Assembly (NCBI GenBank): GCA_965237675.1
Contig: OZ250150.1
Span: 1,568,001 to 1,632,000 of the forward strand
Source: Candidatus Latescibacterota bacterium
Lineage (GTDB): Bacteria > Latescibacterota > UBA2968 > GCA-2709665
DNA: 64,000 nt
Direction: 5' to 3'
The translations under genes and the position numbers were made by a program. Each line of letters begins with the position of its first letter. Within the stretch, counting starts at the first letter, position 1. The notes under the pieces are model-generated. The model was not told the DNA's origin, ran no database searches, and saw nothing but the letters and a program-made list of their open reading frames with translations. Shown here piece after piece: positions 1,936 to 60,844 of this stretch.

Positions 1936-2030
1936 AAACCTGACATCCGCGATATCGATGTCGCCAGGCCGGTATCGCTAACCCTCCCCCTCTCCTCGCA
2001 GGAGAGGGGGAGGGGGGAGAGGTTATCGAG

Positions 2031-2398
2031 ACCTACCCCCTAACCCCCTTCCTGAAGGAAGGGGGAACGGTGATCGTTCAATCTGTTGTGCTCGAGCTAG
2101 TGGCGAGATCGCGTATTCCAATCGATCAGAGCTTATATAACACAGCATTCACGAAACGTGTAGATTTACCCTCCCCCTTTCCTTTAGGAGAGGGGGCCGG
2201 GGGGAGAGGTTATCGAGACCTACCCCCTAACCCCCTTCCTGAGGGAAGGGGGAACGGTGATCGTTCAATCTGTTGTGCTCGAGCTAGTGGCGAGATCGCG
2301 TATTCCAATCGATCAGAGCTTATATAACACAGCATTCACGAAACGTGTAGATTAACCCTCCCCCTCTCCTCGCAGGAGAGGGGGCCGGGGGGAGAGGT
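2031..2398 (+). mobile_element. Two tandem (187-bp period) non-autonomous DUF559-element derivatives
   Basis: Each unit starts with left end ACCTACCCCCTAACCCCCTTCCTGAnGGAAGGGGGAA, contains TCCAATCGATCAGAGCTTATATAA (matches the 3' end of the DUF559 gene) and ends with right-end hairpin CTCCCCCTCTCCTCGCAGGAGAGGGGG...GAGAGGT. Confidence 0.75.
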
Positions 2399-2400
2399 CA

Positions 2401-2781
2401 ATGAAAAAATCCCGGCGAAATATCGTGATTGGTCAGCCTGTTGCGCTCGACAAAGTGAAGTTGGCGGGAAGTTTGCGGGCTCACATGACAGAAGAAGAAA
2501 AACAGCTCTGGCAGCACCTGCGTGCGAATCGGCTTGATGGCTTTCACTTTCGACGGCAACAAATCATCGATGGCTTTATTGTCGATTTCTACTGTCATTC
2601 GGTCGGTTTGGTAATTGAAGTCGACGGCGAGGTTCACCAGAATCAGGTGGCTTATGATGCAAAACGAGATGGTATTCTTACAGCGCGAGGATTACGAGTG
2701 ATGCGTATTTCGAATGTTGAAATCCGCACGAATTTGGGTGGCGTTCTCCAATCAATCAGAGCTTATATAAAACAGTGTTAA
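2401..2781 (+). CDS. DUF559 (Vsr-like) endonuclease domain protein
   Basis: Motifs MTEEEKQLWQHLR, FRRQQIIDGFIVDFYC, VIEVDGEVH, DAKRD; 126 aa. Confidence 0.92.
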   Translation: MKKSRRNIVIGQPVALDKVKLAGSLRAHMTEEEKQLWQHLRANRLDGFHFRRQQIIDGFIVDFYCHSVGLVIEVDGEVHQNQVAYDAKRDGILTARGLRVMRISNVEIRTNLGGVLQSIRAYIKQC

Positions 2782-3126
2782 CGCGCCGCTTAGTTCAGCT
2801 CCCCCTCTCCTCGCAGGAGAGGGGGCTGGGGGGAGAGGTCTCACAGTGTTAACGCGCCGCTTAGTTCAGCTCCCCCTCTCCTCGCAGGAGAGGGGGCTGG
2901 GGGGAGAGGTCTCACAGTGTTAACGCGCCGCTTAGTTCAACTCCCCCTCTCCTCGCAGGAGAGGGGGCTGGGGGGAGAGGTCTCATAGTGTTAACGCGCC
3001 GCTTAGTTCAACTCCCCCTCTCCTCGCAGGAGAGGGGGCTGGGGGGAGAGGTCTCACAGTGTTAACGCAACGCTTAGTTCAGCTCCCCCTCTCCTCGCAG
3101 GAGAGGGGGCTGGGGGGAAAGATCTC
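2772..3126 (+). repeat. Tandem array, 5 x 71 bp, of the DUF559-element right end
   Basis: Unit ACAGTGTTAACGCGCCGCTTAGTTCARCTCCCCCTCTCCTCGCAGGAGAGGGGGCTGGGGGGAGAGGTCTC starts at 2772, 2843, 2914, 2985, 3056. Confidence 0.95.
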
Positions 3127-4031: not shown

Positions 4032-4462
4032 TAGGAACCTGTTTGACGCCATAAATGGCGGTCGAAGGGCGGAATTGGCCGAATTCACGGCTGTTTTCAT
4101 CGACTATCGGAACCGGGTTGTTGAAATCTCATCACACAAAAGTAACGCGTCAACTGTGCTATCTCTGGCATGTGGGAGACGGAGGGGGTGGCTTTCGTGC
4201 ATTTAAAAGGAGGTGTTACAGGACCGATTGCTTACACGGGTTCAACCTAAATCGATAGTCACACTTAAGTTGTTGCAGGCCAGGCATTTTGAATTTTCCG
4301 ACAGAAGGGAGGAACGCCATTACAGCTAAATATTACAACTCTTCGGACTACAGGCATCCCCCCCGCGAGGTGCCAGAGTTGTTAAAGAGGTTGCTTTACG
4401 GCGCAGCAAGGCAGGTTTACGGTAGGTTTTTCGAAGCGTCCTGTTTCATAAGGAGGTTGGTA

Positions 4463-7400
4463 ATGCAGTTAAAAACGGTTTCAAGTCTTGGTTTGGCATT
4501 TCTGCTGGTTGTTGGAGTGGTCGGCGTGGCCTCGGCTCAGGTTGAGGTGGCCGCCACGCAGGGTATTTTAATTCGCGTCGACGCACCGAAAGCCAACGAA
4601 TGGGTCGCGATCGGCGATACGATCAGAGTCCGGATCCTGTGCTACGAAGACCGGCTCGAAGGTGGTTTCCGGATTGCGGTGGTTGATTCCGGCGTTGCCG
4701 ACGCCGGCATCGGAAGCTCTGAAGATGTGGCAGGGAAGATTTATTACAATATTGCTTCAGACGACAACGATCAGGTGAGATCGGGAACCGGTTCCGGCGT
4801 TGACACCTTCGAGGTCAAGATCGGGATTGTCGCCAACACCGTTCCCGCGGAGAATTTTGAGAGCGCCAGCAACCACGCATTGAAGGTTGTGGTCTCTCCA
4901 ACCGCGGCCGTCGACGGACCTCTGAACAACCTGATGAGGAACCGGAAGATCACGCCCGCCACAGCCGGTTTCGGCGCCACCCGCGTGGGTGACGGGAAGC
5001 TCTTCGGCGTCGACGCCGAACGCCCGATTCACGGCGATGTATTTGAGAGTATCGACCTGGATCTGGGCAGGTTAAACACCGTACTGGTCGATACGTCGAG
5101 GGCCGCCGATCTCACCGACATCGGCCAAGAGCCCTACATCCGGGAGATCCGGATTGTCACCGACCAGGTATTCAGAGCGGTGCTGAATCTGAGTACCTCG
5201 CAAATTCTCAACGCCAGGGCAGACAGGATCGAAGTCGGTCTCGCGCCCGTCGACTCGATTGCGCGCTATGAGTTAGAGATAGCGGATGGTGGCCTTGGTT
5301 TGAGCTCGGAAGTGGCGAATGCCGCCGCTTTCAAGGACGATGCGCGGGTAAAAATCGCGCTGCGCGGGGACAGGCTGTACAGCCCGAATCCGAGCGTTGA
5401 TATGAAAATCGAAGCGGGACAGTTTGCGGATAACGAGCGGCTCGAACTTTTCGCCTATCTCGTGGACGTCGCCGGTAACGTGGGCGGTACGGCTGCTGCG
5501 CCCGCCGCTGCCGATTGGAGAACCCTCCACGGCACCGACGGTGAGCTCCTAGCCGAAGTGGGAACTCTTACAACCGCAGCCGGTCCGGACGACAACACAG
5601 ACATTCCGATTATCGGCGACGCGACCGCGCCCAAGATCACGATTAATTATCCCAATCCGGACAGTCTCGCGGCCGGAACGCACGATCCTCTGATCACGGC
5701 GGCAATCACGCAGATGATTACCAATTATACGCCGTTGCCGGGTGAGGCGTCGGGCATAAACACGCGCGATTTGAATCCGCTCGTGATCAAACTCAGCGAA
5801 GCGCCGAGTAAGATCACGATCAAACACGCCGACAGTACGCTTACACTGAACCCCTTCACTGGCGATGATCCCGCCACCGAAGAACCAGAAGATGACTTCC
5901 CCTTGGATCCCACCGGCGGCGATTTAGTGGCCACGGTGGACTTCCTCAACGATACCCCCGAAGGCAACGGATGGTACAAGGTAGATAGCGGAACCGGCGC
6001 CGTGGCGGGTATCGCGAAAGGGAAGTACGAAGCCAAGGGCGGAACGTCCGGGGACATCGTGATCACGGTCTGGGACAGCCTGAACAACAAGTCCGAGATG
6101 ACGCTCGAGGGCATCACGCTCGACGGAAATACCCCGGGGATCGACAATTTGTTCCCCACGGATAAGACCGCGCCCAAAGACGCGGACAACGAGGACGCGC
6201 CCACCATCGACCCGGTCACCAGGAACCCGGTCTTCATAATCAACGAAGAGCTGGACTCGCTGTCCATACGTTATCATGAGGCGGGCGGCGGAACGGCCAT
6301 TGTGCAGGCCTACGGTCCGGGCAACGCCAGGCTGGAGACGGTTGGCAGTCTGGTCGACTGGCCGGTGAACGATACCACCTTCATCGATCGCCAGAGGTAC
6401 GATCTGGAAGTGCTGGCGTTCGACCTCGCGGGCAACGCCTTCGCGAAGGAGGGCGGTACGCTCACGTTCAAAGACGTCTTTATGAATCCGGACGCCGATA
6501 TGTTCATGGTTGTGCCGGATGCAGCCCTGAAAGAGAAACAGGTTGCCGGCGTGGACTACGCCATCGCGTTGTCCGTGCTCGACACAACGCTGACACGTGC
6601 CGAAAAGGCACAAGATAGTGACGCCGCCGACGTTCGGGCGGTAACCTATCACACGCCGTCGGCACTGGCCGCGATCGTTTCCGGCGACCAGGCCGAAGCG
6701 CTTGAAGGCGCGAGCTTCAGCGGCACCGGCGTGTCTGCGGCGCCCTCGTTCGCGCTTCCTGCCGAGTTGGCCGCCGCGGGCATGGTGGCGAAGGCCGCCA
6801 TCCTGGACGGCGACGGTTGGCACGCGGGTACGCGGACCGTCAAGTTCAAGTCCGAGAAGCCGCTCACGGGCGTGCAACTGATGGCGGCCGAGGGCTCCCT
6901 CGATCCCGCCACCGGCGCCTACACGCTGCGTATCAGCGGAATGGCTGCCAAGCCGATCGACGTCCAGATCGCGGAATTCTCCAAGTTCGCCCTCACGTCC
7001 ATGGAGGGTGAGATGTCAACCAACAACGTGGCCGGCTCCTTTACGGTCAGCGTTGTGCCGACCGACGCGTTCGGAAACCCCAGTTTGAGGATTGACAACA
7101 ATACGGGTGCGAAGGATTACACATCGATTTCATTCACCTTCGCTTCCAGCAACGCCGCGGTGACGGTGCCCTCCGGTCAGCAGATGGTGACCAGCCTCGA
7201 AGGGTCCATGTACGGCGCGGTGGCTGCCGACGTTGGCGGCAGCGCGACGGTCAGCGTCAGGACGATTGTTGATACCTACGTAACCGGCGCTTTACAAGCT
7301 TTACAAGCAGATTCACCTGAGGATGTAGAAGATAAGACCGGCGCACTCGTGGGCAGCGTTGCAGTCAACATCGTGTCCGACGACGGTACCGGACCGGATC

Positions 7401-9394
7401 CGGGCGCGCCGGCTGCTCCTGCCAACATCGTGGTCCAGGACTACCTGGGCGCGGACGGTTCGGGCGACCAGGGCGGCATTGTAAAGATTACCTTCCCGAA
7501 CTCGTCGCAACATGACGCCGTGTCCCACTACCAGATCTCAAGGGAAATCGACTCGACCACCGGTCTGGATGACGAAGGCAACGTGGTTGAGCTCGAAGAG
7601 CCCGTGAAGGCGTGGGTGGCCTGGACGAGCGTCAGCTTCGCCGCCGATGCAGGCGACGAGATGGGCGACGCGGGCGGCGACATGCAGAACGTTATCGTCC
7701 CGGCGCTGGACAACGTGGCCACCAACTGGGGCGTTACGGCGGTTAGCGGCGCGGGCTCCTCCGACCAGACCACGGCCAGCAAGCGCGTGTTCACGAAGGA
7801 GAGCGTGGAGCAAGCCCTGCAACTGCTGGGTATGGCGCCCGAGGCGGTTCTGACGGACGACGAACTGATGGCTCAGTTCAACGCTCCCGAAGACTACGTC
7901 AAGTCCCTCATCGGCGATCAGAAGAACGTCATCTTCGCGCCGGTCAATCCCGACGTGAGCGCGCTGATGGGCAGCACCTCGGTACCGGCCAACATCCGTA
8001 CGGCCGGCCATATCTCCGCGGGCAGTTTCCTGTCGTCCGCTCGCACGGTTACCGAGGAGCCTGTCGCAGCCGTTGACAACATCGCTCCCGCCGCAGTCAC
8101 CGACGCTTCCGGCGACGGTGCGGGCGGTGTGGTGTTGAGTTGGACGGGGTCCGCCAGTGAGGGGACCGTGGGTTCCATTCCTTATCGCGGATACAACATC
8201 CCAATCCTGGGTGTCAGCGGCTACAAGGTGCTGAGAGGCACGTCTGCCGACGACCTCGAGGAGATTGCGAGCCTCGATCCGGGTTCGACGCAGTTCAGGG
8301 ACGACAATGTGCCTGATGGGGCCGGTTCCCTCGTGTATCGGATCGACGCGTATGACGACAACAACGTGGCGATGGGCGAATTGATCGCGGTCGAGAATAT
8401 CTCGGTCCGTGTGAGCTTCGTCGATGCCAACGGCGATCCGGTCTACCTCATTGCGCTGCCGTCGCAGGGCGGCAACCTGGAGGTTGACTTCGAAGACTTC
8501 GTCGCCTTTGCGCAGGCTTTCAACAGCCGGAAGGGCGATGCCAACTACAATCCGCAGGCCGACGTCAACGACGACGGCACGGTGGACTTCTCCGACTTCG
8601 TAACGGCGGCCAGGTCCTACGGTCTTACGGCAGTGGTTCCGGCAGGCAGCAAGCTGGCGATCGCTCCGCAGCGCCCGGGCGTGAACGCCGATACGGAGAT
8701 GACCCTCGAACTGACCAGCGAGACGGTGAAGGTTGGCGAGACGATCTCGGTGACGGTATCCATGGCCAATGCCAGGCAGTTGAACGGCTTCGGTCTGGAA
8801 CTGAAGTATGACGCCGAGAAGTTCGAATTCGTCAGCGCCGTTCCCGCTGAAGACGATCTGTTGAAATCCCAGGGTGGCGAGACGCCGCTGTTCAAGAACT
8901 GGCCGGAAGAGGGCCGGGTCTCGGTGGTCAACGCCATTATCGAGGCGGGTTCCGTGAGCGGCGAGGGTGCGCTTGTGACCTTCACGTTCAAGGTTCTGCG
9001 GGAGTTTGAGGACAACGCCCGGTTCGAGATCGCACAGGGCGTGGTCTTCGATCCCGATCAGCTACAGAACCCGGTGGTGTCGCTCGGTGCGCTGGACGTG
9101 CAGAGCACGCCCACCGAGTTCGCGCTGCACCAGAACTTCCCGAACCCGTTCAACCCTCAAACCAACATTCCGTATGACCTGGCTGAAAACGGCGACGTGG
9201 TTCTGCGGATCTACAACCTGCTGGGCCAGGAGGTGCGCACGCTGGTGCGTGAGCGCCAGCCCGCCGGTCGCTACACGGTGCAGTGGAGCGGAATGGACGA
9301 CCGTGGCGTCTCGGTTTCGAGTGGAATTTACTTCTATCAGGTCTCGGTTGCCGGTAAGTTCCAGGATGCCAAGCGGTTGATGTTGCTCAAGTAG
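4463..9394 (+). CDS. Large secreted surface protein (~1643 aa): Ig-like region, dockerin-like EF-hand pair, cohesin-like domain, FlgD-Ig/T9SS-type C-terminal sorting domain
   Basis: RBS AGGAGG before ATG 4463; signal peptide ending VASA; DFEDFVAFAQAF...DVNDDGTVDFSDF; ETVKVGETISVTV...FGLELKYDAEKFEFVSA; LHQNFPNPFNPQT...SSGIYFY...LMLLK. Confidence 0.85.
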   Translation: MQLKTVSSLGLAFLLVVGVVGVASAQVEVAATQGILIRVDAPKANEWVAIGDTIRVRILCYEDRLEGGFRIAVVDSGVADAGIGSSEDVAGKIYYNIASDDNDQVRSGTGSGVDTFEVKIGIVANTVPAENFESASNHALKVVVSPTAAVDGPLNNLMRNRKITPATAGFGATRVGDGKLFGVDAERPIHGDVFESIDLDLGRLNTVLVDTSRAADLTDIGQEPYIREIRIVTDQVFRAVLNLSTSQILNARADRIEVGLAPVDSIARYELEIADGGLGLSSEVANAAAFKDDARVKIALRGDRLYSPNPSVDMKIEAGQFADNERLELFAYLVDVAGNVGGTAAAPAAADWRTLHGTDGELLAEVGTLTTAAGPDDNTDIPIIGDATAPKITINYPNPDSLAAGTHDPLITAAITQMITNYTPLPGEASGINTRDLNPLVIKLSEAPSKITIKHADSTLTLNPFTGDDPATEEPEDDFPLDPTGGDLVATVDFLNDTPEGNGWYKVDSGTGAVAGIAKGKYEAKGGTSGDIVITVWDSLNNKSEMTLEGITLDGNTPGIDNLFPTDKTAPKDADNEDAPTIDPVTRNPVFIINEELDSLSIRYHEAGGGTAIVQAYGPGNARLETVGSLVDWPVNDTTFIDRQRYDLEVLAFDLAGNAFAKEGGTLTFKDVFMNPDADMFMVVPDAALKEKQVAGVDYAIALSVLDTTLTRAEKAQDSDAADVRAVTYHTPSALAAIVSGDQAEALEGASFSGTGVSAAPSFALPAELAAAGMVAKAAILDGDGWHAGTRTVKFKSEKPLTGVQLMAAEGSLDPATGAYTLRISGMAAKPIDVQIAEFSKFALTSMEGEMSTNNVAGSFTVSVVPTDAFGNPSLRIDNNTGAKDYTSISFTFASSNAAVTVPSGQQMVTSLEGSMYGAVAADVGGSATVSVRTIVDTYVTGALQALQADSPEDVEDKTGALVGSVAVNIVSDDGTGPDPGAPAAPANIVVQDYLGADGSGDQGGIVKITFPNSSQHDAVSHYQISREIDSTTGLDDEGNVVELEEPVKAWVAWTSVSFAADAGDEMGDAGGDMQNVIVPALDNVATNWGVTAVSGAGSSDQTTASKRVFTKESVEQALQLLGMAPEAVLTDDELMAQFNAPEDYVKSLIGDQKNVIFAPVNPDVSALMGSTSVPANIRTAGHISAGSFLSSARTVTEEPVAAVDNIAPAAVTDASGDGAGGVVLSWTGSASEGTVGSIPYRGYNIPILGVSGYKVLRGTSADDLEEIASLDPGSTQFRDDNVPDGAGSLVYRIDAYDDNNVAMGELIAVENISVRVSFVDANGDPVYLIALPSQGGNLEVDFEDFVAFAQAFNSRKGDANYNPQADVNDDGTVDFSDFVTAARSYGLTAVVPAGSKLAIAPQRPGVNADTEMTLELTSETVKVGETISVTVSMANARQLNGFGLELKYDAEKFEFVSAVPAEDDLLKSQGGETPLFKNWPEEGRVSVVNAIIEAGSVSGEGALVTFTFKVLREFEDNARFEIAQGVVFDPDQLQNPVVSLGALDVQSTPTEFALHQNFPNPFNPQTNIPYDLAENGDVVLRIYNLLGQEVRTLVRERQPAGRYTVQWSGMDDRGVSVSSGIYFYQVSVAGKFQDAKRLMLLK

Positions 9395-11055: not shown

Positions 11056-11312
11056 GTACGTAGCCATCAACGGTCAGCCATCAGCATTCAGAAAAATAGC
11101 TAAGCCGTTATATTCGCGAATCAATCATATCCACCCCCGCACAATGGCTTGTGGAGCCGCTGAGGCAGCGTGTGTGAAGGTGGGGCAGACATTCCTGTCC
11201 TTCCCTTCGTGTTTACGCAACACTTCGTTCGACTCCCCCTCTCCTCGCAGGAGAGGGGGCCGGGGGGAGAGGTCCTTCTGCCGGAATGCAGACAGAAGAA
11301 AGGCTTGCGCCG

Positions 11313-11532
11313 CCTTTATAGATCCAATACTCGGGGTCGCGCAGTCCGGCTCTTGCGGTATTTTCCACGATGTAACGGACGAGGCGCCAAACCTGCTTTT
11401 CGCTGCGCACCATGTGATCATATCGGATACGTCGAGCCGGAAAGTCCCGGTGACCCCCGTGAGTTGGTTGATTTCGTGGGCAGATGCGCCCTTAATGCCC
11501 TGCAGAATCCGCGAAAGGTCCTGGCCTCCCAC
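11313..11532 (-). pseudogene. Truncated, frameshifted REP-associated tyrosine transposase (RAYT/Y1) remnant
   Basis: LSRILQGIKGASAHEINQLTG, then in another frame MVRSEKQVWRLVRYIVEN; the N-terminal HUH half is absent. Confidence 0.7.
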
Positions 11533-12032
11533 CGGTTCCTCGCGGCCACCTGTCGACCGCCCGGTTGTGGAGTAGGGGGTGTCTATCGCCCTCTAACGTG
11601 TTTAACCGTACCTGCGCCCGGTGGCGAAGTTTGGGGGTTTGCGGCCCCACCGGTTCTCCCGTCGACCGCCCGGTTGTGGAGTGGGGGGTTTTTCCGTGCT
11701 GATCCGTCCAGCAGTGTCGTCTGGTTGATACTCGGGGGGTCTCAGGGCAATGTCTCACGATTTCTCTACGAAGGAGATTCGCGGAAAAACCGGCCCCGTG
11801 CCGAACGGCGCCGTTCTTTTTGGTCCTTTTTCTTGGGCGTACAAGAAAAAGGACGGAGAGAGGAAAAAAGCACGAAGTATAAGGAAGCGTGTGTGAAGGT
11901 GGGGCAGACATTCCTGTCTGCCCATCTCGTGTTTACGCAACACTTCGTTCGACTCCCCCTCTCCTCGCAGGAGAGGGGGCCGGGGGGAGCGGTCCTTCTG
12001 CCGGAATGCAGACAGAAGAAAGGCTTGCGCCG

Positions 12033-12255
12033 CCTTTATAGAGCCAATACTCGGGGTCGCGCAGTCCGGTTTTTGGGGGGTTTTCCGGGATGTAGCGGAC
12101 GAAGCGCCAAACCTGCTTTTCGCTGCGTACCATGTGATCATAGGATTCGTCGAGCCGGAAAGTCCCGGTGACGCCCGTGAGTTGGTTGATTTCGCGGGCA
12201 GATACGTCTTTAATGCCCTGCAGAATCCGCGAAAGGTCATGCCCTCCCAGCGGTT
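12033..12255 (-). pseudogene. Truncated RAYT/Y1 transposase remnant (C-terminal half)
   Basis: LSRILQGIKDVSAREINQLTGVTGTFRLDESYDHMVRSEKQVWRFVRYIPENP resembles the RAYT C-terminus (DESFDH..R...YI.NNP). Confidence 0.72.
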
Positions 12256-14199: not shown

Positions 14200-15078
14200 A
14201 GATCACCCGAATCATACGAATCCCAGTATTCGCGCCGGATCCCGGGTCCCATCCCGGCGTACCTATCACAGTTTGGGTCTCAATCAGCCTTTAATCATTG
14301 CAATCATTGTAATCACAGTCAATCACCGTATTCGCGCCGGATCCCGGGTCCCATCCCGGCGTACCTATCACAGCTTGGGCCTCAATCAGCTCTTAATCAT
14401 TGCAATCATTGTAATCACAGTCAATCACAGTATTCGCGCCGGATCCGGGGTCCCATCCCGGCGTACCTATCACAGCTTGGGCCTCAATCAGCTCTTAATC
14501 ATTGCAATCATTGTAATCACAGTCAATCACAGTATTCGCGCCGGATCCGGGGTCCCATCCCGGCGTACCTATCACAGCTTGGGCCTCAATCAGCTCTTAA
14601 TCATTGCAATCATTGTAATCACAGTCAATCACAGTATTCGCGCCGGATCCGGGGTCCCATCCCGGCGTACCTATCACAGCTTGGGCCTCAATCAGCTCTT
14701 AATCATTGCAATCATTGTAATCACAGTCAATCACAGTATTCGCGCCGGATCCCGGGTCCCATCCCGGCGTACCTATCACAGTTTGGGCCTCAATCAGCTC
14801 TTAATCATACGAATCACAGTATTCGCGCCGGATCCCGGGCCCCATCCCGGCGTACCTATCACAGCTTGGGTCTCAATCAGCCTTTAATCACAGTCAATCA
14901 CAGTTAATCACAGTCAATCACAGTCAATCACAGTCAATCACAGTCAATCACCGTATTCGCGCCGGATCCCGGGCCCCATCCCGGCGTACCTATCACAGCT
15001 TGGGTCTCAATCAGCTCTTAATCATTGTAATCACAGTTAATCACAGTCAATCACAGTCAATCACAGTCAATCACAGTC
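14200..15078 (+). repeat. Tandem array of ~102-bp units (8 core copies) made of a GC hairpin plus an AATC-periodic tail
   Basis: Cores at 14224, 14326, 14428, 14530, 14632, 14734, 14817, 14951; tail built from AATCATTG(C/T) and AATCACAGTC modules. Confidence 0.95.
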
Positions 15079-16911: not shown

Positions 16912-17062
16912 TCAGCCTTTAATCAGGTCTTAATCACAGTGAATCACAGTGAATTACAGTCTCTCCTTGGGTTTAATCAGCCTTTAATCAGGTCTTAATC
17001 ACAGTAATCACAGTAATCACAGTAATCACAGTAAATCACAGTAAATCACAGTAAATCACAGT
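16909..17062. repeat. AATC-periodic repeat tract filling a convergent intergenic gap
   Basis: TAATCAGCCTTTAATCAGGTCTTAATCACAGT twice, followed by AATCACAGT runs; overlaps both stop codons. Confidence 0.85.
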
Positions 17063-19692: not shown

Positions 19693-20028
19693 TCGGTACC
19701 GCCGGGCGGCTATAGTTTCTCCAAGGGTTTTAATCAGCTCTTAATCACAGTCAATCATGGTGTAATCACAGTCCGGTATTGTCAAGCCTTTTTATCGAAC
19801 TTCAACAGGGAATGTTCTGCAGGAAGGCAAACACGTGCGGAAAGCGGGTAGGGAATCCCGGCGGAGAGGCGCTACGGTGGGGTCGATCCGAGATGTACAA
19901 CGAGCGGCTTTTTGGACGATGAGTTGATGACGGAGATGCAAATGTCGAGGAGCAGTCCATCCTAAAGTCTATTCATGAGATATTGTCACGGATAGCGGTA
20001 TCAGGAAGCAGAAACAGCTTCCGAGTGA

Positions 20029-20352
20029 ATCGAGAAAGTGAAGTCGGTGCGAGGTTTTCGGGCTGGCATGTTAGAAGAAGAACGACAGCTCTGGCGAGAC
20101 CTGCGGGACCTACCCCCCCCCTTCCTGAGAGGAAGGGGGAACCGTGATCGGTTAATGAACGGTTGGATTGGCTGAAGACGTTTCCATTGTTGAAAAAATC
20201 CCGGCGAAATATTGTAATAGGTCAGCGTGTTGCGATCGAGAAAGTGACGAGATGACATTCTCCGATCAATCAGAGCGTAAAAAAACAGTATTTACGCAAC
20301 GCTTGGTTCAACTCCCCCTCTCCTCGCAGGAGAGGGGGCCGGGGGGAGAGGT
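20029..20352 (+). mobile_element. DUF559 gene fragment followed by an internally deleted DUF559 element (20108-20352)
   Basis: Fragment IEKVKSVRGFRAGMLEEERQLWRDLR; then left end, KKSRRNIVIGQRVAIEKV coding remnant, gene 3' remnant and right-end hairpin. Confidence 0.8.
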
Positions 20353-20358
20353 CCTCAC

Positions 20359-20505
20359 TAAAGACTCGCGAAAAGGATTCTGTGATGATTATCTTGAGCC
20401 TCCACGCCAGGTTGCTCCAGGTTCATTGTTATAAGGTTAATTAAGTAAGCCAGAATTCAATGACTTGAGCAAGGAGACTTCCTTTTGTGTGAATTAATGA
20501 GGCTA
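20359..20505. repeat. ~147-bp dispersed repeat, second copy at 60879-61025
   Basis: Both copies share AAAGACTYGCGAAWAGGATYCTGTGATGA, CTCCAGGTTCATTGTTATA and terminal GAATTAWTSAGGCTA. Confidence 0.7.
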
Positions 20506-21299: not shown

Positions 21300-21399
21300 T
21301 TACAGCAATCCTCCAAAGTCTTTCCATGGGTTTCAATCAGGTTTTAATCGCAGTTAATCATAGTCCATCACAGTAATCATAGTTAATCATAGTTAGTGG

Positions 21400-21428
21400 T
21401 TGACATTCCAAAAACACCGGGCTATACT
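21400..21428 (+). promoter_or_regulatory. Near-consensus sigma70 promoter
   Basis: TTGACA-17 bp-TATACT. Confidence 0.75.
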
Positions 21429-21434
21429 TATGTG

Positions 21435-21518
21435 ACGTATCGACTCTGGTTGATAAATTCTCTTGATTGGAGTGCTTCATAAAGGCTGTCGCCGTTGGCC
21501 GAGGGCGGCGGCCTTTTC
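21435..21518 (+). ncRNA. Candidate small RNA (~85 nt) or terminated leader
   Basis: Lies between the promoter and a 13-bp hairpin (21481-21516, two G-U pairs on the + strand) followed by Ts. Confidence 0.45.
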
Positions 21519-21537
21519 GATAACATCACACCCTAGC

Positions 21538-21846
21538 AATCCCAGTCCTTATTTGCCTTTATCACAGTTAATCAGGATTTAATCCCAGTCCATCCCAGTC
21601 CTTATTTGCCTTTATCACAGTTAATCAGGTTTCAATCCCAGTCCATCCCAGTCCTTATTTGCCTTTATCACAGTTAATCAGGATTTAATCCCAGTCCATC
21701 CCAGTCCTTATTTGCCTTTATCACAGTTAATCAGGTTTCAATCCCAGTCCGTTTTTGCCTTTATCATGGTCAATCATAGTTAATCCCAGTCCAGCTCTTG
21801 TTTTAATCATAGTTAATCATTAGTAATCATAGTTGTAATCATAGTC
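21538..21846 (+). repeat. Tandem array, 4 x 53 bp plus degenerate AATC-periodic tail
   Basis: CCTTATTTGCCTTTATCACAGTTAATCAGG at 21547, 21600, 21653, 21706; GGATTT and GGTTTC variants alternate. Confidence 0.92.
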
Positions 21847-24649: not shown

Positions 24650-24824
24650 TTCTCCCCCCGGCCCCAAGTCCCTCACCCCCCAACCCCCTCTCCCACAGGG
24701 AGAGGGGGAGCAGAACCAGGGGTTGACCTATCACGTTATCTCGTCCAGGTTTTTTCATCAATCGAACTGTCTTCAACCGAAGACAGTTCCCCCTTCCTCT
24801 CAGGAAGGGGGTTAGGGGGTAGGT
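24650..24824 (-). mobile_element. Internally deleted DUF559 element
   Basis: Reverse complement reads left end, ATGAAAAAACCTGGACGAGATAACGTGATAGGTCAA (DUF559 5' remnant), then right-end hairpin. Confidence 0.75.
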
Positions 24825-60633: not shown

Positions 60634-60844
60634 ACCTACCCCCTACCCCCCTTCCTGAGAGGAAGGGGGAACTGCGATCGGTTGACGAACGGCCAGATTG
60701 GCTGAGGACATCTCGAATGATGAAAAAACCCAGGCGAAATATTGTGATGGGTCAGCTCAATCAGAGCACATATAAAACAACGTTGATTCAACGCCTGGTT
60801 CAACTCCCCCTTTCCTTGCAGGAGAGGGGGCCGGGGGGAGAGGT
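60634..60844 (+). mobile_element. Internally deleted DUF559 element inside the mgtE operon
   Basis: Left end, MMKKPRRNIVMGQ remnant joined to TCAATCAGAGCACATATAAAACA (gene 3' end), right-end hairpin. Confidence 0.8.

Follow-up and report, generated by a model that had tools for sequence, protein, structure and literature searches.

A small DUF559 nuclease gene and its hairpin ends form a horizontally moving unit that decays into miniature repeats

Introduction

The 64,000-nucleotide stretch of Candidatus Latescibacterota DNA analysed here (the window; positions 1,568,001 to 1,632,000 of contig OZ250150.1) contains an intact gene of the DUF559 endonuclease family and five internally deleted relatives of it, all bounded by the same two hairpin-forming ends. 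Do the nuclease gene and the hairpins move together, and if so, what moves them? Our results show joint inheritance and joint transfer of the gene and its ends between phyla, and also that the unit decays in place into gene-less miniatures that keep both ends. The first-pass annotation of this DNA had proposed an element resembling REPINs (hairpin-forming doublets of repetitive extragenic palindromic sequences, REPs) that is mobilised by the nuclease or hitchhikes with it; the gene-linked mobile unit is supported, and the likeness to REPINs is one of analogy and not of membership. About half of our belief goes to a fuller reading, in which a selfish element has its master copy in the window. 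The sole gene of this element encodes a minimal Vsr/EDxHD-type (DUF559) nuclease, two modules form its ends, and it would spread by the joint action of nuclease and host repair.

DUF559 is among the commonest nuclease families of unknown function, and G/C-rich hairpin repeats are widespread and mostly unexplained; the link between a defined DUF559 subfamily and an end pair that crosses phyla offers a testable function for both. In the literature searched, outside which most subscription journals lie, we found no description of an association between a DUF559 gene and hairpin ends.

The gene travels with the same ends in several phyla

We compared 80 related loci, with proteins 49–78% identical, from Cyanobacteria, Chloroflexota, Poribacteria, Spirochaetota, Desulfonema, a Deferrimicrobium metagenome-assembled genome and Latescibacterota. 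Hairpins were analysed at the 73 loci that have both flanks, over 320 bp upstream and 200 bp downstream of the gene. A C-rich/G-rich hairpin was found upstream in 63/73, downstream in 59/73 and on both sides in 51/73, and only two loci had neither. Near the gene there are 4.75 hairpins per kb, and farther off 0.26. Across phyla the left ends read ACCTAACCCCC..CCCCCTTCCC-loop-GGGAAGGGGG and the right ends CCCCTCTCC-loop-GGAGAGGGG..GGGGGAGAGGTC. That 71 of the 73 close homologues have a hairpin nearby argues more strongly than any other result for a single unit of gene and ends. Similarity between copies most often stops about 180 bp upstream and about 110 bp downstream of the gene (the commonest values in 547 pairs), break points that correspond by position to the two outer termini, ACCT head and AGGT tail.

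Among the cyanobacterial loci, pairs of Scytonema loci (L074, L075, L078 and L079) share 1.2 kb of one flank, while the other side breaks exactly at the element's outer end. This suggests that these elements were breakpoints of a rearrangement or of an exchange between copies.

The association can also be followed within the phylum of the window. We counted the left-end hairpin pattern in 151 phylum genomes and searched these for the gene at E ≤ 1e-25. Hairpins occur in 13 of the 14 genomes with the gene (1–184 copies; G051 has none) and in 30 of the 137 without it, none being found in the remaining 107. The eight genomes of this sample with at least 20 copies all carry the gene, and genomes without the gene reach 10 copies or more only within the family of the window's genome, namely in genus g1 and in G016. 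These counts show that hairpin copy number tracks gene presence; hairpins equally abundant in genomes lacking DUF559, an outcome that the first-pass annotation had set against its own proposal, are not what we observe. The link recurs in three separate families (f1, f2 and f4), within which relatives are not independent. Close homologues of the gene (58–80% identity) are patchy among 41 relatives, and within genera the gene is present in 4 of 20 g6 genomes and in 4 of 14 g1 relatives.

Filled and empty sites

Insertion of the complete unit was observed in genus g6, which belongs to another family. In two of its genomes (G027 and G023) a 545-bp unit stands between two conserved genes and consists of a left end, a 60-nt leader, the gene and a right end, DUF559 being its only open reading frame (ORF). 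Comparison of 20 loci at this site yielded 2 full-length units, 1 derivative (130 bp in G030, in which the left end directly joins the 3' end of the gene), 3 unrelated inserts (314–430 bp) and 14 empty sites, with 13–60 bp between the flanks. When empty, this site reads ..GTGGTC-TTAG-AGGTCCAC.., and when filled ..GTGGTC-ATGAAG[ACCT...GGGGGGAG]AGGTCCAC.., where brackets enclose the element. The sequence AGAGGTC, already present in the empty site, is identical to the last 7 nt of the right end, and these 7 nt are the only match between target and right end. There is no target duplication at the full-length g6 insertion, and two to four target bases were replaced. These sites show that the unit is mobile in this sister genus.

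Smaller insertions were found in G027 as well. Three cores of 70–87 bp, running from left to right end and placed between a stop codon and the GGAG of the next gene, have clean empty sites in relatives that are 93–97% identical. No fixed-length target duplication was found at two loci (L192 and L198), and an imperfect 7-bp repeat is the most that the clean G027 cores show.

In the window's own genus clean empty sites are mostly unobtainable, the spacers being scrambled: the arc-dop spacer and the sites at 88237 and 1510726 are fast-evolving repeat dumps whose content differs per species. The insertion at window position 60634 is absent from G010 over its whole length of about 390 bp and is replaced in G008, G012 and G001, and the 533 bp at 19971 are absent from the orthologous site of G012. 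Empty orthologous sites, for which the first-pass annotation had proposed to look, do exist. Comparison of G011 with G014 gives a hint that an element plus GGAACGAG replaced about 33 nt. Short-read contigs from public runs break inside the repeats and their joints match other repeat copies, which makes them uninformative on excision, circles and expression.

That gene and ends are one horizontally moving unit is concluded from presence and absence at the g6 site, hairpin density near the gene, the gene–hairpin correlation and the similarity break points.

Anatomy of the ends

The left end is made of an ACCT head and a CCCTTCC-type hairpin, and the right end of a CCCTCTCC-type hairpin followed by a GGGGGAGAGGT tail. 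As the first-pass annotation had it, the two are imperfect inverted repeats of each other and each has its own hairpin: the left end aligns with the reverse complement of the right end over about 40 nt, which makes them terminal inverted repeats (TIRs), and folding as single-stranded DNA gives stems of 9–11 bp (-10 to -14 kcal/mol). Left ends have folding z-scores from -3.1 to -4.0, right ends weaker ones, from -1.5 to -2.6. Compensatory changes are seen at 3 of 10 pairs (in 8, 13 and 8 of 36 sequences), and there are hardly any broken pairs; the hairpin is maintained by compensation.

Both ends follow a common plan when read on the strand with the outward-pointing 3' end: pyrimidine arm, loop, purine arm, 3-nt linker and tail. 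The tail mirrors the purine arm, with G opposite G and A or T opposite A. The mean mirror match between tail and purine arm is 0.907 over 92 parsed ends, compared with 0.834 when the tails were dealt among the ends (maximum 0.862 in 500 trials), 0.70 when the letters were shuffled and 0.71 for a direct repeat, that is, with the arm not reversed. The ends are thus homopurine mirror repeats with a short spacer, of the H-DNA type. Homopurine mirror repeats are the classical motif of H-DNA, or triplex DNA, and by their sequence the ends are putatively triplex-capable.

Deleted copies in the window

The gene, its deleted copies and the repeats around them are arranged in the window as follows (MITE, miniature inverted-repeat transposable element; UTR, untranslated region).

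1982..2023, + strand: solo right-end module, hairpin at 1984-2010 plus G-rich tail
2031..2210, + strand: 180-bp internally deleted copy with left end, 5' and 3' gene remnants and right end
2218..2398, + strand: second tandem deleted copy, 181 bp, 97% identical to the first
2401..2781, + strand: intact DUF559 (Vsr/EDxHD-type) nuclease gene, 126 aa, the sole genome copy with all conserved residues
2772..3128, + strand: tandem array of a 71-bp unit, five times; unit of last two codons, 3' spacer, right-end hairpin and tail
11209..11274, + strand: solo 66-bp right-end module inside a REP-like repeat (hairpin GGCAGACA..TGTCTGCC)
11929..11994, + strand: second solo right-end module, nested in the same REP-like family
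19971..20503, + strand: 533-bp composite outer MITE with its own 13-bp TIRs
24670..24824, - strand: short derivative with left end, 5' UTR, first 12 codons and right end with diverged tail
60634..60844, + strand: 211-bp derivative, running on into the outer MITE's right half to about 61024

The five deleted relatives lie where the first-pass annotation had located them, except that the one given as 24650–24824 more exactly spans about 24670–24824. Its description of shared ends, of remnants from the ends of the gene and of differing deletion points holds for every one of the five: the left end is ACCTACCCCC..CCCCCTTCC-loop-GGAAGGGGG, the right end is CCCCCTCTCC-loop-GGAGAGGGGG..GGGGGGAGAGGT, and what remains of the gene between them are its first codons (MKKSRRNIVIGQ-like), its last codons or both. 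To these copies we add the solo right ends at 11209–11274 and 11929–11994, the array of five 71-bp units and the position of copy 20108–20352 inside the 533-bp MITE. The right-end motif has 24 matches on the two strands of the window, that is, 12 sites, and none in 100 shuffles. A stricter left-end pattern gave 2 matches versus none in shuffles; with its one-base loop this pattern missed most copies, whose true loops have 3–5 nt. Rfam, at gathering thresholds, gave no match in the window.

The caveat that the gene is preceded by a right end and not by its own left end also stands: the right-end tail GGAGAGGTC of copy 2218–2398 adjoins the gene's ATG and resembles a ribosome-binding site. Both full-length gene copies of this genome have a left-to-right-end miniature directly upstream, with GGAGAGGTC touching the ATG, and since the arrangement is the same in both, a right end before the ATG is a conserved arrangement and not an accident.

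Apart from copy 20108–20352, the outer MITE at 19971–20503 holds a DUF559 pseudogene piece (20030–20107, codons 16–41). This piece and another at C1:1147672-1147720 stop at one and the same codon (..LWxxLR), where a left end starts, and the gene's own ACCTGCG resembles the ACCTAC terminus at this junction. The shared junction stems either from one old nested insertion or from a recurrent junction.

Genome census and nesting in other repeats

The genome (G000; 5.6 Mb in 3 contigs) contains 33 left-end and 74 right-end modules, as counted by blastn-short. For 32 of the 33 left ends a right end follows 110–250 bp downstream on the same strand; these pairs are internally deleted copies. Many copies stand inside other repeats. 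An outer module of about 75 bp and 13-bp TIRs (CCTGATTAATTCA-type) are common to 14 of the paired copies. Direct repeats of 4 bp (CTAA, CTAG and ATAA among others) flank these copies, to which the window copy at 20108 belongs. This outer MITE measures about 530–570 bp, has 13 further copies in the genome and is also found with TTAG flanks; its 4-bp repeats are presumably duplications of the type made by IS5-like elements. A right-end module of 66 bp, discrete and extending from the last two codons of the gene to GAGAGGTC, is nested in the other family, the REP-like repeat, whose empty (gene-less) paralogues read CCCTTCTC-ATTGTC-CTTCTGCC. Six filled copies of this repeat have an identical junction and therefore go back to one event, amplified by the REP-like host repeat; in all, at least six solo right ends lie inside it.

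The REP-like repeat (hairpin GGGGCAGACATTCC-TGTCTGCCC) is found at about 124–239, 11139–11340 and 11880–12060 of the window and at C1:1533097-1533467 and C1:1677019-1677375, and one flank query gave 44 genome matches. The genome has three matches to the Y1 transposase family PF01797 (C1:1781826, 1533097 and 1677151), two of which the repeat directly adjoins. The GGCAGACA..TGTCTGCC hairpin repeat looks like a separate REP/RAYT-like system (RAYT, REP-associated tyrosine transposase). A further MITE, of 134 bp, was found in G027; it has TIRs around GCTGTTTTAAAA with a left-to-right-end core in its centre, and it duplicates a stop codon plus ribosome-binding site between two genes (TAAGGAGTTTT).

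From the nesting of copies in the outer MITE, in the 134-bp MITE of G027 and in the REP-like repeat it follows that much of the copy number is second-hand, a good part of it not being the nuclease's doing. Raw repeat counts mix several nested mobile systems.

The DUF559 protein

The first-pass annotation had placed the intact gene at 2401–2781, which the Pfam match of its 126-aa product confirms (PF04480, E 2.2e-35; 121.3 bits against a cut-off of 20.6, covering model positions 5–108 of 109). The protein scores 81.8 bits with the NCBIfam DUF559 equivalog, under that model's cut-off of 218, and fits the Pfam DUF559 model and not the Vsr model. It consists of one nuclease domain and about 28 N-terminal residues. 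RRQQIIDGFI, E73, D75, H79, D86, R89, R102 and N105 are invariant in 27 homologues (49–76% identity).

The AlphaFold2 model of the protein (predicted local distance difference test score, pLDDT, 85) has as its best PDB matches 3hrl (E 7e-9) and 3r3p (E 2e-4), along with Vsr (1cw0 and 1vsr); the PDB search by sequence gave nothing beyond 3hrl. Entry 3r3p is the catalytic domain of I-Bth0305I, which Foldseek aligned to the predicted structure with template modelling (TM) scores of 0.60/0.75. As modelled, the protein has a Vsr-like restriction-endonuclease fold, and its best characterised structural match is a homing endonuclease, I-Bth0305I. A table in one review groups PF04480 with Vsr and 3r3p (PMC3424549). 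PADLOC gave nothing but weak nuclease-domain matches, which leaves a defence role without support.

Searching the genome by tblastn recovered two full-length DUF559 genes only, the window copy and C1:4512369, along with one 5'-truncated relic and many fragments of 11–26 aa.

Other features of the window

Dense tandem arrays built on the 10-mer AATCACAGTC occupy 14210–15078, 16932–17062 and 21344–21845; their higher-order periods are 102, 204 and 306 bp, and there is also an array of a 53-bp unit, repeated four times. A further repeat family (..CGCGGAAAAGCAGCCCCGCGGCG..TTTTTCGCCCTTTTTCTTGGGCG..) fills about 300–1900 of the window and the arc-dop spacers of most relatives in the genus. Short motifs (GCTGATAGCTG runs and CCGTCTCACC-type runs) also fill the intergenic dumps of every species of the genus, with varying content. 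A 1701-aa ORF lies at 4289–9394 on the + strand; its C-terminal stretch resembles a type IX secretion sorting domain.

Discussion

How could a unit with a single small nuclease gene move? We propose that the nuclease, probably as a dimer, would recognise the end modules or the palindromic junction of tail and head and nick or cut there, and that host recombination and repair would then copy the element. Gene conversion between copies may keep the element alive, and interrupted gap repair would leave internally deleted copies with differing junctions. New insertions could arise by microhomology-primed repair at purine-rich targets that resemble ribosome-binding sites (AGAGGTC, GGAGA) by stop codons; they would have no target-site duplication and small replacements of target DNA. 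Many miniatures would later have been amplified as passengers of other repeats. Cutting plus host repair agrees with the absence of a duplication, with microhomology at the right junction, with the replacement of small stretches of target DNA, with deletion points that vary and with a unit that has no other gene.

Several results weigh against this reading, as do the gene orders and the nested copies discussed with the rival explanations below. Hairpins occur without a close gene in ten g1 genomes (2–19 copies), in G016 (17) and in G017 (22); the last, in the 41-genome sample, has no DUF559 match at E ≤ 0.001 and is a real exception. The window's genome has a single intact gene, its second full-length copy (C1:4512369, 80% identity) having D62N at a nearly invariant residue and no right end. 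With some G027 cores 4–31 extra nt of varying length move along, and the boundaries of the inserts are inconstant. Second-hand copies, as said, make up much of the copy number. No strand transfer is known for Vsr-type enzymes, which are hydrolytic nickases, and joining must therefore be left to the host. Finally, we infer the action of the nuclease on the ends, and no result shows it touching them.

Three other explanations were weighed. The one that survives best, which we nevertheless hold to be unlikely, is that the hairpins are an independent miniature repeat whose modules move by other means, and that DUF559 is a free-standing homing endonuclease gene that spreads by cutting gene-less copies, at the palindromic junction of right-end tail and left-end head or in the spacer of the gene-less module. 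Its predicted fold is indeed closest to that of an enzyme presented as a proven homing endonuclease in PMC3239194. Gene order points the same way: outside Latescibacterota, a right end before and a left end after the gene are the commoner order, found in 25 of the 73 loci, often as complete modules on both sides, whereas strict typing gives left end, gene and right end in 8/73; the stop codon is the TAA of an ACCT-AA head in 31/73; and a right-end tail stands directly before the ATG in the window copy, in copy 2 and in G022. The lack of a target duplication at the full-length insertion would suit such a gene too. On the other hand, the miniatures of the window's genome hold gene remnants and thus come from gene-bearing copies, not from naive targets; the full-length unit entered a g6 site that had no module; and hairpin counts of zero in most genomes without the gene are unexpected for an independently mobile repeat.

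A second explanation, which we find decidedly improbable, attributes all movement to other transposases (DDE enzymes acting on outer TIRs, or Y1/RAYT-like ones), with gene and hairpins as cargo or as a favoured landing pad. The nested copies speak for it: the outer MITE, with its 13-bp TIRs and 4-bp duplications, surrounds 14 of the 32 paired copies; two further G027 cores (L188 and L186) lie inside the TIR-bounded 134-bp MITE, L188 with an exact 11-bp duplication; and two of the three PF01797 matches stand beside GGCAGACA-hairpin repeats that carry solo right ends. The 545-bp unit, in contrast, has no room for a second gene and neither outer TIR nor duplication, similarity between copies stops at the ACCT and AGGT termini, and the same ends accompany the gene in at least five phyla while the outer repeats differ. 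Mobility due to another transposase, which the first-pass annotation had named as a challenge to its proposal, accounts for a subset of copies (the 14 in the MITE and the at least six solo right ends in the REP-like repeat) and not for the link between gene and ends across phyla. A host function, with the hairpins as REP-like terminators or mRNA stabilisers, DUF559 as a domesticated repair or structure-specific nuclease and neither of them selfish, is very improbable: the modules do lie in very short spacers, after stop codons and before ribosome-binding sites, the hairpin is maintained by covariation and Vsr is a repair enzyme, but the gene is patchy within genera (4/20 g6, 4/14 g1), decays to pseudogenes and has its closest relatives in other phyla (55–68% identity), and the unit is present or absent at orthologous sites.

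Returning to the selfish element with a nuclease as its sole gene, we would suggest, tentatively and with rather less than even confidence, that it represents an unrecognised class of mobile element, in which a 126-aa Vsr/EDxHD-type nuclease, the product of the only gene, recognises compound ends that combine a hairpin with a triplex-capable, G-rich mirror-repeat tail, host repair does the copying and spread across phyla seeds miniature repeats. A hydrolytic Vsr-type nuclease would then be added to the few enzymes that sustain families of miniature repeats. So small a nuclease, whose DNA partner is long, structured and apparently sequence-specific, would also be a possible tool.

Comparison with known systems

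The Vsr mismatch-repair endonuclease has, judging by the model, the same fold and the same catalytic Asp/His chemistry. Vsr is linked to Dcm and is conserved as a housekeeping gene in single copy, whereas the window-type gene is patchy and multi-copy or decaying.

EDxHD homing endonucleases, with I-Bth0305I (3r3p) as prototype, likewise have a Vsr-type nuclease fold, which the window protein is predicted to share, and a catalytic set of E..D..H..D residues, to which the invariant E73, D75, H79 and D86 may correspond here; their genes too behave selfishly and spread horizontally. I-Bth0305I is summarised in PMC3239194 as a multidomain homodimer that cuts a pseudopalindrome and is encoded in a group I intron of a phage recA gene. 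Unlike it, the window protein has 126 aa and a single domain, with no multidomain architecture that includes an N-terminal DNA-binding region, and its gene is intergenic, stands within its own hairpin inverted repeats and has miniature derivatives.

IS200/IS605 insertion sequences (IS) and their palindrome-associated derivatives likewise have end hairpins, insert by a short element-like motif and make no target-site duplication. IS200/IS605 elements are not known to have terminal inverted repeats, and their Y1 transposase acts on single strands. Unlike theirs, the present ends are inverted repeats, and the unit contains no Y1 gene, its only ORF being DUF559. The small dispersed repeats described by Elhai in 2008 are reportedly tiny nested hairpin repeats in Nostoc with no known enzyme, and may overlap the cyanobacterial modules.

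MITEs of classical DDE-type IS (Nezha/ISNpu3, Correia) also have TIRs, gene-less copies of 100–250 bp and empty and filled orthologous sites. Nezha elements have flanking direct repeats, and their TIRs are held in common with a transposase-bearing IS, ISNpu3, according to their description in PMC3184786. As a cyanobacterial counterpart they can be compared by this description only, which makes no link to DUF559. Unlike DDE MITEs, the present unit inserts at full length without duplication and its parent encodes a nuclease and not a transposase; duplications were found only at the larger MITEs that carry the core, and a duplication of fixed length, of the DDE type, does not accompany the unit.

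The closest analogy is with the REP/RAYT/REPIN systems, which likewise combine one small gene with many short hairpin repeats, gene-less doublets and a correlation between gene and repeat abundance. Repeat abundance depends on the gene here as it does for REPINs (13/14 versus 30/137), with G016 and G017 as exceptions. Unlike REPs, the present repeats have no GTAG/CGTC tags and derive by deletion from a gene-bearing element. RAYTs are Y1 HUH transposases (PF01797), whereas the enzyme here is a PD-(D/E)XK/Vsr-type hydrolase and not a Y1 protein, the PF01797 matches of the genome lying elsewhere. If the proposed reading is true, the element would be a parallel to REP/RAYT in which a PD-(D/E)XK hydrolase takes the place of the HUH enzyme.

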